From NCBI GenBank assembly GCA_041600795.1, contig JBFIJJ010000001.1, positions 1-36,597 of the forward strand: a DNA stretch of 36,597 nucleotides, in the 5' to 3' direction. The notes under the pieces were generated by a model, which was not told the DNA's origin, did not search any database, and saw only the letters and a list, made by a program, of their open reading frames with translations. Made by a program: the position numbers and the translations under genes. Shown here one piece after another: positions 9,213 to 23,226 of this stretch. The stretch comes from Methylophagaceae bacterium. GTDB taxonomy: Bacteria > Pseudomonadota > Gammaproteobacteria > Nitrosococcales > Methylophagaceae. Each line of letters opens with the position of its first letter. Position 1 is the stretch's first letter.

Positions 9213-10012
9213 ATAAATTCATCTTTATCATATTAAGCTTATTCTCTAGTTATGTGTGCGCTGATACTAGCATTGAAACTATTCAAATCAACCATCGACT
9301 AGCACAAGATGTTTTGCCTGAAGTGACGGCATTTTTACCCGAAAATGCAACTGCTCGTGCATTTAATAATATGATTATTATCAAAGCTGAGCCGGCTACT
9401 ATTAACGAAGTAAAGAAACTGATTAACAAGCTTGATACACCACCACAACGTCTCAGGCTTACCTTATTAAAAACAGCTACGAAATTAGTCGATGAACAAC
9501 AATCACAATGGCAAGGCGATGTTGTGATCAGTGATGATGTCAAATCAGCCAGTGTTTCAGTTAAAACGTGGTCAACACAAACAGATAATAATTCTAATGC
9601 TAAATATCAAGCCCAAGGAATTGCTGGCGTACCGATGAAACTCAATATGGGCCAATTAATCCCGCAATCCCAACAAAATGTCTTTTTGCGATTTAATGGC
9701 GATGTGGTTGTACAATCCAATACGCAATACATACCTATTAATAATGGATTTGAGGCCATTGCGTCTGTGTTACCAAACAATCAAGTGTCTATTGAAATTT
9801 ACCCTCAATTCAGCAGTTTCTCGAAACGGCATGGTAGCATTGATCGTACTCAATTAATCACAACGATAAGCGGCCCGGCAGCAACTTGGCTGGAGCTTGC
9901 CCAAATTAATACGAATGCTAATTCTGAACAAGATGGTGCTAAACAGTACCAGACACATCAGCAGCAACACTATATATATATCAAACTAGACCCTATTTTA
10001 ACTACTAATTAA
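9209..10012 (+). CDS. Secreted protein with a secretin N (NolW-like) domain and a short secretin-like C-terminal region ('mini-secretin')
   Basis: 267-aa ORF with a signal peptide (MNKFIFIILSLFSSYVCA/D). The NolW-like motif reads IQINHRLAQDVLPEVTAFLP...ARAFNNMIIIKAEPATINEVKKLINKLDTPPQRL. The C-terminal stretch (VSIEIYPQFSSFS...IDRTQLITTISGPAATWLELAQI) resembles the core of the secretin beta-domain. The protein is far shorter than GspD/PilQ-type secretins. Confidence 0.55.
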   Translation: MNKFIFIILSLFSSYVCADTSIETIQINHRLAQDVLPEVTAFLPENATARAFNNMIIIKAEPATINEVKKLINKLDTPPQRLRLTLLKTATKLVDEQQSQWQGDVVISDDVKSASVSVKTWSTQTDNNSNAKYQAQGIAGVPMKLNMGQLIPQSQQNVFLRFNGDVVVQSNTQYIPINNGFEAIASVLPNNQVSIEIYPQFSSFSKRHGSIDRTQLITTISGPAATWLELAQINTNANSEQDGAKQYQTHQQQHYIYIKLDPILTTN

Positions 10013-19653: not shown

Positions 19654-20277
19654 TTATTTAGATACGGTTATAACCGTATTTTGCGAAACTCTGCTTTGAA
19701 AAAAGCGATAGAGGCGTGGCAGTAATAACACACTAAAAATAGCTGCATACAATAAAGGTTCAGCCTTATCTTGTTTAACCAACATATAAAAATGGACTGT
19801 ACTCGCTATTGCAATAAAATACGTGAGTTGATGCAGTTTTTTCCATCGACGACCGCCTAAACGTTTCACCATTTTATTTGTAGATGTAAGTGCTAAAGGA
19901 ATCAACGCCGAATACGTAAAAAATCCAATAGTAATAAAGGGGCGTTTAATAATATCTTTGACAATTTCATTGATATCAAAAAACTGATCCAGCCCTAAAT
20001 ACAGCAACATATGTAGCGTGGCATAAAAGAAGACATATAGACCCAACATACGTCTAAATGGCACTAAATTAATGTCAAAAAGCCATCTAACTGGCGTAAC
20101 AGCCAAGGTCAAACATAAAAACCGTAACGCCCATAAGCCGCTATCTCTGGTTAATGTTTCGATTGGATTGGCACCAAGTTGGTTAGTCAACAAGCCAATA
20201 ATCATCCAAACCAGCGGTAGCAGGCTAATGATAAATAGAATTACTTTCTGTTTCGACACTGACATGATCATAATCAC
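19654..20277 (-). CDS. msrQ: Protein-methionine-sulfoxide reductase heme-binding membrane subunit MsrQ (YedZ)
   Basis: It is a roughly 200-aa polytopic membrane protein directly abutting the msrP stop. Its profile is YedZ-like (LGANPIETLTRDSGLWALRFL, conserved His in TM helices). The start is ambiguous: GTG 20277, ATG 20271 or ATG 20265. Confidence 0.85.
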   Translation of the reverse strand: MIMIMSVSKQKVILFIISLLPLVWMIIGLLTNQLGANPIETLTRDSGLWALRFLCLTLAVTPVRWLFDINLVPFRRMLGLYVFFYATLHMLLYLGLDQFFDINEIVKDIIKRPFITIGFFTYSALIPLALTSTNKMVKRLGGRRWKKLHQLTYFIAIASTVHFYMLVKQDKAEPLLYAAIFSVLLLPRLYRFFQSRVSQNTVITVSK

Positions 20278-21237
20278 TTAAAAGTATTTTTTTAAATCCA
20301 TACCGGTATATAAATGTGCCACCTCATCGCCATAACCATTAAATAGCTCGGTTTTGCGTTTTAGAAACTCACCAATACGGCGTTCGCGGCTTTGACTCCA
20401 ACGGGGATGATCCACATTTGGATTTACATTCGAATAAAAACCATATTCACGTGGTCCGGCTTTCATCCATGCTGATTCAGGTAGTTTTTCAACAAAACGG
20501 ATATTGACGATAGATTTAATACTTTTGAATCCGTATTTCCAAGGCACTACCAATCTGATCGGTGCGCCATTTTGTCCTAATAATTCACGACCATATAGAC
20601 CAACAGACAATATCGTAAGCGGATTCATGGCCTCGTCCATTCTCAATCCTTCTACATAAGGCCAATCCAACACGGCGCGGCGTTGCCCTGGCATTTGTTC
20701 TGGATCATAAAGCGTAGTGAATTGAACAAATTTAGCTTTAGAGTTTGGTTGTGCTCTTTTAATTAAATCTGCTAGTGGAAAACCGACCCACGGAATAACC
20801 ATCGACCAACCTTCTACACAGCGGAAACGATAGATGCGTTCCTCTAAGGTAAAGGGTCGAATAAGATCGTCATAGTCATATTCTCCCGGCTTATCGCATT
20901 CACCATCGATGGTGACACGCCAAGGTTTACTCTTGTCCGGAAACTCCGTTGCTAAAATTGCTGGCGATGCTTTATCTGTTCCAAACTCGTAGAAATTATT
21001 GTAAGTAGTGACAGAATCATAAGCTGTAGGTGATTCTGTAGCTGAATACTCGCTTTTAACCACGTTTTTAAATGTAGGTTCTGGTGTTTCTGCCGCACGC
21101 ACCAATGAGGTTTGTAACATACTCGCTGTCGCTATCGCAGCAGAACCGTTTAAAAATTGTCTGCGATTAAGATAAACCTTGTGATCGGTGATCTCACTGG
21201 CAGGCATTTCACCTAATCTTTTTTTACGTATGTTCAT
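20278..21237 (-). CDS. msrP: Protein-methionine-sulfoxide reductase catalytic subunit MsrP (YedY, periplasmic molybdoenzyme)
   Basis: It has a Tat signal (NRRQFLNG) and strong collinearity with E. coli MsrP ([65 protein letters not shown]). The ATG at 21237 follows GAGGTGA, while the track start at 21246 is a GTG. Confidence 0.9.
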
Positions 21238-21247
21238 AATAATCACC

Positions 21248-21832
21248 TCAACAGTTTGAGTACTTTTTAGCTAACCAGTAATCAATACTGACATAACGAC
21301 CTGCACCAATAAAAAACAATGTCATCAGCATAATAAAATAGGTTGCAGCGAACTCAATACCATTGTTTAGAATGACAAAACTGCCTTTTTCTGTCAGCCA
21401 CTCATAGTTACCATGTTCTTGTAAAATTGAACGGGCCATTTCAAGTTGTGCACTCGGCTCTGCAATAGCCAGCCAGCCATTCTGCCAATGTACTGTAACA
21501 GCAGCCACAATCATCGTAATCATCAAAGGAATACTGACCCAGCGAACGGCTAAGCCGAGTAATAGCAAAATCGCGCCAAAATATTCTGCACCCCATGCTA
21601 AATAAGCCAATACTTCAGGGAAAGGAAGTCCTAATCCCCAGTCAGCGTTGCCAAACCAGTCAATCACACTATCTAGCGAACTATCTTTATCAAAGGGATT
21701 CCACTTATTATTTGAAGCCATCCAAAAAATAGGCACAAGATAGAGACGTAGTGCTAATGGTGCTAAAAAATCAAGCATCCTCGTTTGATTCAATCCCTGC
21801 TGTAAACGATTGACCATGGTGCAAATAAACAT
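21248..21832 (-). CDS. DoxX-family integral membrane protein, of the type that accompanies HvfA/bufferin RiPP clusters
   Basis: 194-aa ORF with about 4 TM helices and DoxX hallmarks ([33 protein letters not shown]-terminal [12 protein letters not shown]). A good SD (AGGAGA) precedes the ATG at 21832. Confidence 0.75.
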
Positions 21833-21850: not shown

Positions 21851-21880
21851 ATAAAAAAGGGCTCAATCAAGAGCCCTTTT
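21851..21880 (-). terminator. Rho-independent terminator/attenuator between the Cys-repeat peptide gene and doxX
   Basis: The minus strand reads AAAAGGGCTC-TTGATT-GAGCCCTTTTTTAT, a 10-bp perfect stem with a GC core, a 6-nt loop and a U-tract. It sits 32 nt after the peptide stop and 19 nt before the doxX start. Confidence 0.7.
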
Positions 21881-21911: not shown

Positions 21912-22259
21912 TTATTTTTTGTTAGCACCACATTTTGCTTCGCCACATTTACCTTCTTTCATTTTTTCAGCTTTTTCTTTCATTTCTTCACCGCATTTAG
22001 CTTCCTGGGCTTTTTTCATTTCTTCACCACATTTAGCTTCCTGAGCTTTTTTCATTTCTTCACCACATTTAGCTTCGTGTTCAGCTTTTTTATTTGCGCC
22101 ACAGTTGCCTTCAGCAAGTTGCATATAACCACTTGATAATTCATTTGATGTGAATGGATTTGCATCAGCACTTGCAGTCATTGGTGATAATGCAAGACCA
22201 GCTGTTAATGCTACACTTGCAGCTAATGCGATTGTTGTTTTGTTTGTAGAAATAGACAT
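21912..22259 (-). CDS. Secreted Cys/Met/Lys/Glu-rich tandem-repeat peptide, an HvfA/BufA2-like (6-Cys) putative RiPP metallophore precursor or redox-sink peptide
   Basis: 115-aa ORF with SD AAGGAA. The Sec signal has an AXA site (MTASA/DA). The mature approximately 84 aa contain 6 Cys, every one in an (N/K)-C-G-(E/A) context: EGNCGA, EAKCGE x3, EGKCGE, EAKCGA. It also has 5 Met and no hydrophobic core. Confidence 0.8.
   Translation of the reverse strand: MSISTNKTTIALAASVALTAGLALSPMTASADANPFTSNELSSGYMQLAEGNCGANKKAEHEAKCGEEMKKAQEAKCGEEMKKAQEAKCGEEMKEKAEKMKEGKCGEAKCGANKK
21981..22076. repeat. 36-bp tandem repeat, 2 full copies plus a 24-bp partial copy, encoding the EAKCGEEMKKAQ module
   Basis: Copy 1 is 21981-22016, copy 2 is 22017-22052 and copy 3 is 22053-22076. 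Copies 1 and 2 differ at 2 positions, both synonymous (TGC/TGT Cys, GCC/GCT Ala). Confidence 0.9.
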
Positions 22260-22299
22260 AATATTTTCCTTTAAGTTTAAGTTAGTATAAAAAACAACC

Positions 22300-22313
22300 G
22301 GTCAAACCTGACC
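22300..22313. promoter_or_regulatory. Palindrome GGTCA-N4-TGACC in the divergent sigma/peptide intergenic region (candidate operator)
   Basis: The perfect 5+5 inverted repeat GGTCAAACCTGACC is read directly from the sequence. It overlaps a weak sigma70-like -35 (TTGGTC/TTGACC) on the minus strand. Confidence 0.3.
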
Positions 22314-22327
22314 AAGCTTGCTAACAT

Positions 22328-22353
22328 AGACGCTCTTGATTTCGGATTGTTAC
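22328..22353 (-). promoter_or_regulatory. Candidate ECF-type promoter (GTAAC-N16-CGTCT) directed at the peptide-doxX-msrPQ operon
   Basis: The minus strand reads TGTAAC-AATCCGAAATCAAGAG-CGTCTA, which matches the generic ECF pattern AAC-N16/17-CGT. The implied TSS gives a leader of about 60 nt before the peptide ATG at 22259. This is motif-level evidence only. Confidence 0.3.
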
Positions 22354-22360
22354 AAACGCA

Positions 22361-22978
22361 ATGAATTTTTTTTCTAAATTAAAAAAAAATGATGAATCAC
22401 AACTGATAAAACAGCTTATCGCAGGTGATGAACGCGCGTTTCAACAGGTCGTATCAGAGCACCACAATACGATGTTATCAGTAGCTCGCGCTATTGTTGG
22501 TGACGCTTTTGCTGACGAAGTTGTACAAGATGCATGGATTTCAGCCATTAAAGCCTTACCCCAATTTGAAGGTCGTTCCAGCCTTAAAACATGGTTATTA
22601 CACATTGTATCTAATGGGGCTAAAACGCGAGTTCGCCGAGAAAACCGTATGTCATCGCTAGATGAACATTGGGAATCGGAACCCGCCGACAAATTTGATC
22701 ACACCGGTCATCGCTATGACGATGTTTTACCTTGGGAACAAGCAACGCCCGAGGAAATATTAGCCAATGAGCAGCTACAAACAATTATTGAACAAACTTA
22801 CCAAGAATTGCCCGCGTTACAACGGGCTGCCTTAACTATGTATGATATGGAAGGGATCGAAATGAACGAGATTTGTAACATTCTCTCGATCTCTTCGTCT
22901 AATGTGCGAGTCCTTTTACATAGAGCCCGAACAACGTTGCACCATAAAATTGAACAATATCAACAGAGTGAAAAATAA
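22361..22978 (+). CDS. ECF (group 4) RNA polymerase sigma factor
   Basis: 205-aa ORF with sigma70 region 2 (AGDERAFQQVV...VVQDAWISAIKALPQFEGRSSLKTWLLHIVSN) and region 4 (LPALQRAALTMYDMEGIEMNEICNILSISSSNVRVLLHRAR). Confidence 0.9.
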   Translation: MNFFSKLKKNDESQLIKQLIAGDERAFQQVVSEHHNTMLSVARAIVGDAFADEVVQDAWISAIKALPQFEGRSSLKTWLLHIVSNGAKTRVRRENRMSSLDEHWESEPADKFDHTGHRYDDVLPWEQATPEEILANEQLQTIIEQTYQELPALQRAALTMYDMEGIEMNEICNILSISSSNVRVLLHRARTTLHHKIEQYQQSEK

Positions 22979-23226
22979 TGTACCAATGTAAAGACATTGC
23001 CGATGAAGTAAACAACTATATTGATGGCGATTTAGCCCTCGGTAAACGCATCGGGCTATTTTTTCATCTGTTGATTTGCAGTTGCTGCCGGAATTATTTG
23101 CAACAAATTCGCTCTACGATATCTATCGTTACCGTTGCTCGTCCAAAAGAACAAGACGGCACTGACATAGATTCATTAGCTAAACGTTTACATAGTCTAT
23201 GCCATGAAGAGCATGACCATCATTAG
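22978..23226 (+). CDS. Zinc-finger (ZAS, zf-HC2) anti-sigma factor, short soluble form with a His-rich tail
   Basis: 82-aa ORF whose start overlaps the sigma stop (TAATG). It has an HxxxCxxC motif (H30-LLI-C34-SC-C37) plus Cys4. No TM segment is present. The C-terminus is LCHEEHDHH. Confidence 0.7.
   Translation: MYQCKDIADEVNNYIDGDLALGKRIGLFFHLLICSCCRNYLQQIRSTISIVTVARPKEQDGTDIDSLAKRLHSLCHEEHDHH

Follow-up and report, generated by a model that had tools for sequence, protein, structure and literature searches.

A predicted HvfA-family peptide encoded with HvfX, MsrPQ and a putative redox-type sigma/anti-sigma pair in Methylophagaceae

The stretch of DNA considered here (the window) is an entire 36.6-kb contig (JBFIJJ010000001.1, 36,597 nucleotides; GenBank assembly GCA_041600795.1) from a Methylophagaceae bacterium, in which a short open reading frame (ORF) at 21912-22259 on the reverse strand encodes a cysteine-containing peptide with a putative Sec signal. 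From sequence comparison we assign this peptide to the HvfA family of precursors (oxazolin, Buf_EGKCG or EGKCG-type captophorin), with a predicted periplasmic metal-binding role, and its gene lies in a predicted operon hvfA-hvfX-msrP-msrQ. We consider it rather more probable than improbable that the product is a stress-induced, Sec-exported Cu(I) buffer of the HvfA family, co-expressed with HvfX and MsrPQ, the cysteines of which would be converted to 5-thiooxazoles by HvfB and HvfC (HvfBC) encoded elsewhere, i.e. that modification would occur in trans.

The family assignment draws on ORF calling and translation, profile matches, homologue searches and motif conservation. The peptide scored 44.5 bits, against a cut-off of 19.5, with NF050137 (NCBIfam, KCGExKCG_twice), a curated domain model named 'HvfA family oxazolone/thioamide-modified RiPP metallophore' (RiPP, ribosomally synthesised and post-translationally modified peptide), the match extending over three stretches of the sequence. 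NF050188, the equivalog model for Haemophilus influenzae HvfA, aligned end to end at 26.8 bits, below its cut-off of 95, so that the peptide is better described as a member of the family than as an HvfA orthologue. Pfam returned no family for the peptide at E ≤ 0.001, and hence no match to DUF2282 (PF10048, Bufferin 1). A protein search identified 821 homologues at E ≤ 0.001, and the exact peptide sequence had no match in public assemblies. In H. influenzae the EGKCG cysteines of HvfA (oxazolin) are modified by the MNIO enzyme HvfB together with HvfC, and the product binds copper (PMC11252979); the modification has since been reassigned to 5-thiooxazole and the class named captophorins (PMC13097082), and a 'Buf_EGKCG/oxazolin' family of about 2,000 proteins has been surveyed (PMC12452194). 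Taken alone, the peptide would be one more member of a family first reported in 2024-2026, and the NCBI models now in use would give it its name.

The ORF starts with ATG and encodes 115 amino acids followed by a stop codon (nucleotides 21912-21914). The predicted signal peptide (22167-22259) precedes a conserved NPF..ELSSGYMQLAE segment (22110-22160) and a core of E-[GA]-[KN]-C-G repeats (21915-22109). Residues 1-31 were judged by eye to have a Sec-type layout, with MSISTNK leading into a hydrophobic segment and ASA|DA after it, and this n-h-c arrangement with ASA|D is also kept in homologues. The mature peptide comprises 84 residues, including 6 Cys, 5 Met, 17 Lys, 16 Glu and 12 Ala, in agreement with a preliminary description of this DNA, made from the letters alone, that had reported six cysteines and five methionines in a Lys/Glu/Ala-rich background. 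The cysteines occupy positions 53, 65, 77, 89, 105 and 110 (spacings 12, 12, 12, 16 and 5); all six lie within E-[GA]-[KN]-C-G and are followed by Gly, and their contexts (EGNCGA, EAKCGE three times, EGKCGE and EAKCGA) are exactly those given previously. Part of the core is a 36-nucleotide tandem repeat (21978-22076, reverse strand; 2.8 copies, TRF score 184, 96% matches) encoding EAKCGEEMKKAQ units. The same description had called the repeat helical, for which AlphaFold2 (25-sequence alignment) offered no confident support: the mean pLDDT (predicted local distance difference test) was 45.8, no residue exceeded 70 and helices were merely tentative, at residues 69-73 and 80-100, so that helical character is not established for the peptide. 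Its further proposal, that the sequence resembles an MNIO substrate of the HvfA kind, is borne out by the match to NF050137, by the neighbouring hvfX gene and by motifs that fall mostly within the range of the characterised maturase FonBC.

Downstream of the precursor gene on the same strand are hvfX (21248-21832; DoxX-family membrane protein of HvfA clusters, NF050144 232.6 bits against 80, Pfam DoxX E = 3.7e-19), msrP (20278-21246; periplasmic molybdenum methionine-sulfoxide reductase with an RRQFL twin-arginine translocation (Tat) motif, NF003767 467.8 bits against 207) and msrQ (19654-20277; haem-binding membrane partner of MsrP, NF003831 171.9 bits against 130). An HvfX-based scan of one genome per species, examining 10 kb to either side of each hit, recovered 80 loci, 48 of them of Methylophagaceae type, and in all 48 the order ispH-ABC transporter-DUF1244-anti-sigma-sigma is divergent from hvfA-hvfX-msrP-msrQ-aceE. 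The msrP start lies 1-10 nucleotides past the hvfX stop and msrQ abuts msrP, and gene order is identical in M. frappieri JAM7 (CP003380.1), a cultured isolate with a complete genome. Neither MNIO (PF05114) nor HvfC (DUF2063, HvfC_N/HvfC_C) was found in the window by Pfam searches of its ORFs or by tblastn with four MNIOs.

Loci outside Methylophagaceae, which often lie in a similar neighbourhood (argG, aceEF), contain hvfA-MNIO-HvfC wherever hvfA was detected, usually with hvfX directly next. Variants include L033 and L043, where about 6 kb separates hvfABC from hvfX, L055 (MNIO-HvfC-hvfX-msrP) and L082/L083 (sigma-anti-sigma-hvfA-MNIO-HvfC-DoxX); the MNIO matches P0169 and P0222 belong to canonical clusters of other gammaproteobacteria. 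A published survey of MNIO-anchored clusters mentions 'small numbers' with oxidoreductase-molybdopterin and ferric-reductase genes (PMC12452194). We found no description in the literature of the family-wide Methylophagaceae arrangement of these known parts, as it appears from the sequences compared here.

Motif conservation was assessed in 40 peptides from the Methylophagaceae loci, which lack MNIO genes nearby, and 18 peptides from MNIO-linked loci. In the former, Gly occupies position +1 relative to 295 of 295 cysteines and Glu position -3 relative to 294 of 295, Gly or Ala fills position -2, and Lys stands 267 times at position -1, where most of the other residues are Thr, Ser or Asn; in the latter the corresponding counts are 135 of 136 for Gly and 133 of 136 for Glu. 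The preliminary description had allowed that homologues might not conserve the Cys-Gly motif, which would mark the peptide as merely low-complexity; no such loss was seen. At the DNA level the +1 Gly is written GGT (152), GGC (134) or GGA (10), with no replacement across 296 sites, and the motif Cys as TGT (213) or TGC (83). Invariance of Gly despite this synonymous variation indicates selection and not recent duplication, and the Cys-Gly motif is under strong purifying selection. For the -3 Glu, 294 of 296 codons are GAA, a bias that seems to exceed general codon preference; codons for the neighbouring Gly, Cys and Lys vary freely.

Elsewhere the peptides differ in how they evolve. Most positions of the NPF-x3-ELSSGYMQLAE segment that follows the signal peptide are 80-100% conserved, and the nearest relative, L001 (AceE 97% and HvfX 87% identical), encodes a precursor nearly identical in signal peptide and N-terminal segment with a wholly different repeat array (9483-9917 of that locus), consisting of four copies of EKAKEGKCGEAKCGADKEGAKAADG, 24-residue units with Cys doublets and no Met. 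Judged from such comparisons, repeats are gained and lost in the core array at a very high rate, and the 12-residue spacing and Met content of the window peptide are thus lineage-specific and not features of the family. A regular Met site, C-G-x-x-M, occurs in 56 cases in the Methylophagaceae peptides; Met-richness was considered as a mark of msrPQ-linked peptides and rejected, since Met is present in the core of 29 of 40 msrPQ-linked and 8 of 18 MNIO-linked peptides, 11 of the 40 have none, and the L001 array is Met-free. Two loci additionally carry Cys-free precursor paralogues (L016, 8583-9002; L021, 8872-9177) that keep the signal peptide and NPF..GYMQLAE and have an acidic tail; retention of that segment implies that it has a role independent of Cys modification. 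Tandem pairs of precursor genes occur in L004, L005, L012 and L056, the second copy having, after its last KCG, a distinct conserved tail of the form ...KCGAK-x-(L/V/I)D-x-AF(M/L)-x-N-x-(S/T)Y..., also found in L006, L024, P0010 and P0115.

Divergent from hvfA, and kept beside it in relatives, is a gene for an extracytoplasmic function (ECF) sigma-70 factor (22361-22978, forward strand; TIGR02937 sigma70-ECF, 87.9 bits against 42.9), followed by one for a small cytoplasmic anti-sigma factor (22978-23226, forward strand) of 82 amino acids with an H-x3-C-x2-C (HLLICSCC) zinc motif. The latter scored 48.6 bits with NF052368, just under the cut-off of 50, and its M. frappieri orthologue carries Pfam zf-HC2. 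The pair fits the ECF/zinc-anti-sigma (ZAS) layout of RpoE2-HrsE and SigR-RsrA and is a putative redox switch. Orthology of the window sigma factor with that of the canonical cluster L083 was considered and set aside as weak (31% identity, different promoter). In H. influenzae, the ECF sigma factor RpoE2 with its small cytoplasmic anti-sigma factor mediates induction by hypochlorite (HOCl) of msrAB and the doxX-hvfABC operon, and Neisseria SigE acts likewise (PMC7907618). In one Methylophaga genome (L030, 4799-8047) the ABC transporter beside the locus is replaced by other genes, which by eye encode thioredoxin-like, CcdA/DsbD-like membrane, second anti-sigma-like and small redox-type proteins. 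Together these would make up a further module of envelope thiol-redox chemistry adjoining the sigma gene.

Upstream of hvfA a motif scan located TGTAACA-N16-CGTCTA (22327-22354, reverse strand), a conserved site in relatives that is identical before hvfA of the canonical locus L050. The window contains two matches against 0.03 expected, and its occurrences in related loci are nearly confined to two sites, one upstream of hvfA and the other within the 3'-terminal part of the sigma gene, before the anti-sigma gene. We infer that the 22327-22354 element is compatible with an ECF promoter that the neighbouring sigma factor recognises. The second exact copy (22874-22901, forward strand) lies inside the sigma-gene 3' end, 77 nucleotides upstream of the anti-sigma start and at an equivalent position in most related loci, and might act as an internal promoter from which the anti-sigma factor is expressed in a feedback loop; because it falls within sigma region 4 coding sequence, where the protein may drive conservation, its conservation is not independent evidence. 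Of the Cys-free paralogues, that in L016 has an exact copy of the promoter motif and that in L021 a diverged version.

Between this promoter and the ribosome-binding site, and a few bases downstream of the -10 element, a terminator-like call marks a leader hairpin (TTGGTCA-GGTT-TGACCGG followed by a T-run; 22288-22315, reverse strand). When leaders of distinct relatives were folded separately a hairpin was predicted in 39 of 39 (median ΔG -9.2 kcal/mol, z -2.4), with at least five T in the next nine bases in 30 of 39. Stems vary among relatives (GGTCA/TGACC, GGCC/GGCC, CCGG/CCGG, CGGG/CCCG), and consensus folding of a MAFFT alignment gave a weak consensus of 4 bp, as stems at differing offsets do not line up. 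The element may act as an attenuator or stabilise the 5' end, or it may give rise to a short RNA; Rfam returned no family in the locus or window. A further, GC-rich hairpin (GGGCTC-loop-GAGCCC, with an A-run before and a T-run after; 21853-21880, reverse strand) was read from the sequence between the hvfA stop and hvfX start and is likely a partial terminator with a bidirectional-type appearance, which would leave precursor transcript in excess over the downstream genes. A simple scan did not pick it up; the probable reason is that its stem is able to reach into the T-run.

These elements can be accommodated in a mechanism in which oxidative, hypochlorite or copper stress would inactivate the zinc anti-sigma factor and the freed ECF sigma factor would fire the TGTAACA-N16-CGTCTA promoter. 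Precursor would then be produced in excess over HvfX and MsrPQ and exported by the Sec route, periplasmic Cu(I) would be sequestered through modified cysteines, with Met thioethers possibly contributing, and MsrPQ would meanwhile repair oxidised periplasmic methionines. Within this scheme, we put at somewhat better than even the chance that HvfB and HvfC (MNIO/PME1), encoded at another site in the genome, convert the cysteines to 5-thiooxazoles, and we slightly prefer such modification in trans to a copper and oxidant buffer that stays unmodified. The E-x-K-C-G motif is equally strict in MNIO-less and MNIO-linked loci, which supports the view that the cysteines are still maturase substrates. 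FonBC requires a small residue after Cys and has EAKCG and EGKCG as native motifs (PMC13097082); those of the window peptide lie mostly within its measured range, the exception being EGNCG, whose -1 Asn is outside the variants reported. The L033 precursor contains Met-bearing single-Cys repeats (EGKCGEGMKKA) like those of the window peptide and is encoded directly beside MNIO and HvfC, and the separation of hvfABC from hvfX in L033 and L043 indicates that the cluster is already fragmented, both of which support action in trans. Complete genomes with EGKCG precursors and no MNIO are on record but rare (67 of 2583; PMC12452194), and this rarity also supports a maturase elsewhere. Several observations weigh on the other side. 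Neither MNIO nor HvfC was found within 10 kb of any of the 48 Methylophagaceae loci, or among the Pfam-annotated genes of the M. frappieri locus; among the best 120 of more than 8000 matches to the MNIO of L033, the nearest canonical locus, and the best 120 of 2827 to its HvfC, none was traced to a known Methylophagaceae contig. FonBC in vitro modified a two-repeat peptide and not a one-repeat peptide (PMC13097082), and four of the six cysteines here are isolated, 12 residues apart. The Cys-free paralogues of L016 and L021 keep NPF..GYMQLAE, so that this segment need not be a maturase recognition site. The literature and its supplements yielded nothing usable on Methylophaga with MNIO/DUF692.

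The alternative to modification in trans, an unmodified Cu(I)/thiol buffer of the kind that the preliminary description had also raised, and to which we give appreciable weight although somewhat less than an even chance, is an MNIO-independent offshoot in which hvfBC has been lost and the unmodified peptide is exported, its Cys thiols, and Met where present, forming a periplasmic sink for Cu(I) and/or hypochlorite kept reduced by HvfX/DoxX (thiols) and MsrPQ (Met sulfoxide). The absence of hvfB and hvfC from the window and the related loci, with a tightly coupled hvfX-msrP-msrQ instead, favours it, as do the genomes recorded with EGKCG precursors and no MNIO and the regular C-G-x-x-M site. In E. 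coli, MsrPQ is reportedly induced by copper stress and said to repair the Met-rich copper chaperone CusF, a further link in its favour. A Caulobacter study describes DoxX as dispensable for installing the modification, suggesting that its role lies elsewhere (PMC11626156). Against the alternative, the same study reports that bufferin metal binding requires the thiooxazoles and is not provided by the unmodified form (PMC11626156). Plain thiolate binding moreover hardly explains the strict -3 Glu and +1 Gly, of which FonBC processing shows the Gly to be strict and the Glu less so. Methionine is not conserved, and L001 retains msrPQ beside a Met-free array; together with the other Met-less msrPQ-linked peptides (11 of 40) this weakens the case for MsrPQ repairing the peptide's own methionines, and MsrPQ is more likely a co-regulated general repair module. 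Extended to the whole of Methylophagaceae, the idea becomes that of an HvfA-type peptide uncoupled from MNIO and rewired into a self-contained envelope-stress module of redox-sensing ECF/zinc-anti-sigma pair, unmodified Cys/Met peptide, HvfX and MsrPQ, in which the peptide, devoid of heterocycles, would buffer Cu(I) and hypochlorite in the periplasm and be recycled; we regard this as a tentative proposal with roughly one chance in its favour to two against. A spurious or merely low-complexity ORF might be suspected from the lack of a confident AlphaFold2 fold and from the source name 'low-complexity protein' carried by some relatives; the conservation data refute it, gene position and reading frame being conserved across the 48 related loci, the gene being equipped with a conserved promoter and ribosome-binding site of its own, the motif residues Cys, Gly and Glu staying invariant despite synonymous change and the curated family model being passed, and we attach practically no probability to it.

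In Methylophagaceae, then, as seen in about 50 related marine bacteria, the precursor has remained beside HvfX with neither MNIO nor its partner in the vicinity, and a periplasmic methionine-sulfoxide reductase and a redox-type sigma/anti-sigma pair have joined them instead, so that one locus reproduces a regulon scattered in Haemophilus and Neisseria. It supports EGKCG peptides as parts of envelope oxidative and chlorine-stress responses as much as of copper homeostasis, and constitutes a natural test of the role of HvfX/DoxX and of whether EGKCG peptides act without thiooxazoles. Should the maturase-free module prove correct, a RiPP family would have a branch that naturally works without a maturase, and the unexplained DoxX/HvfX would gain a role as redox partner of the peptide.

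Among known systems, the MsrPQ-CusF pair of E. coli likewise ties periplasmic copper handling by a Met-bearing protein to MsrPQ repair; unlike the window peptide, CusF is no RiPP but a chaperone with a defined fold that serves an efflux pump, and it is not known to share an operon with MsrPQ. HvfA/oxazolin of nontypeable H. influenzae (NTHI1441; doxX(hvfX)-hvfA-hvfB-hvfC; PMC11252979) has a Sec signal peptide, as is predicted for the window peptide, and resembles the latter in its conserved N-terminal segment, C-terminal E-G/A-K-C-G repeats with a final KCGExKCG doublet, DoxX/HvfX neighbour and, likely, control by an ECF sigma factor with a small zinc-type anti-sigma factor. HvfA differs in having AEGKCGEGKCG doublets, whereas four of the six window cysteines are single, in 12-residue Met-containing units, and in an N-terminal disulfide Cys pair that the window peptide lacks; its operon includes hvfB and hvfC, which the window locus does not, msrPQ being joined to the operon there. 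The EGKCG (Lys-Cys) captophorins fontiphorin (FonA/FonBC) and gonophorin (PMC13097082) share the 5-mer motif, including native EAKCG, and the small residue after Cys, and are stress-linked, Cu-binding periplasmic peptides, as is predicted for the window peptide; their clusters, unlike the window, place MNIO and PME1 beside the precursor, and FonBC in vitro acted on repeats only when two stood side by side, an arrangement that most repeats of the window peptide do not have.

The bufferins BufA1 (DUF2282) and BufA2 (Buf_6/12Cys) of Caulobacter vibrioides are Sec-exported RiPP copper buffers with Cys-derived thiooxazoles (PMC11626156), properties that are predicted for the window peptide, and their clusters resemble the window locus in having DoxX and an ECF sigma/anti-sigma pair in or near them. 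Bufferins fold into small proteins that contain 4 to 12 Cys and lack EGKCG repeats, no sequence relation to the window peptide was detected (no Pfam DUF2282 match), and their sigma/anti-sigma pair, SigF/NrsF, is of a different type. In the RpoE2 (H. influenzae) and SigE (Neisseria) regulons (PMC7907618), hypochlorite acts through an ECF sigma factor, paired with a small anti-sigma factor of the cytoplasm, on both the doxX-hvfA cluster and a methionine-sulfoxide reductase of the periplasm, parts that have equivalents in the window. The genes of those regulons are dispersed and their reductase is MsrAB (plus MtsZ), whereas in the window regulator, peptide, HvfX and MsrPQ are brought together in one locus.

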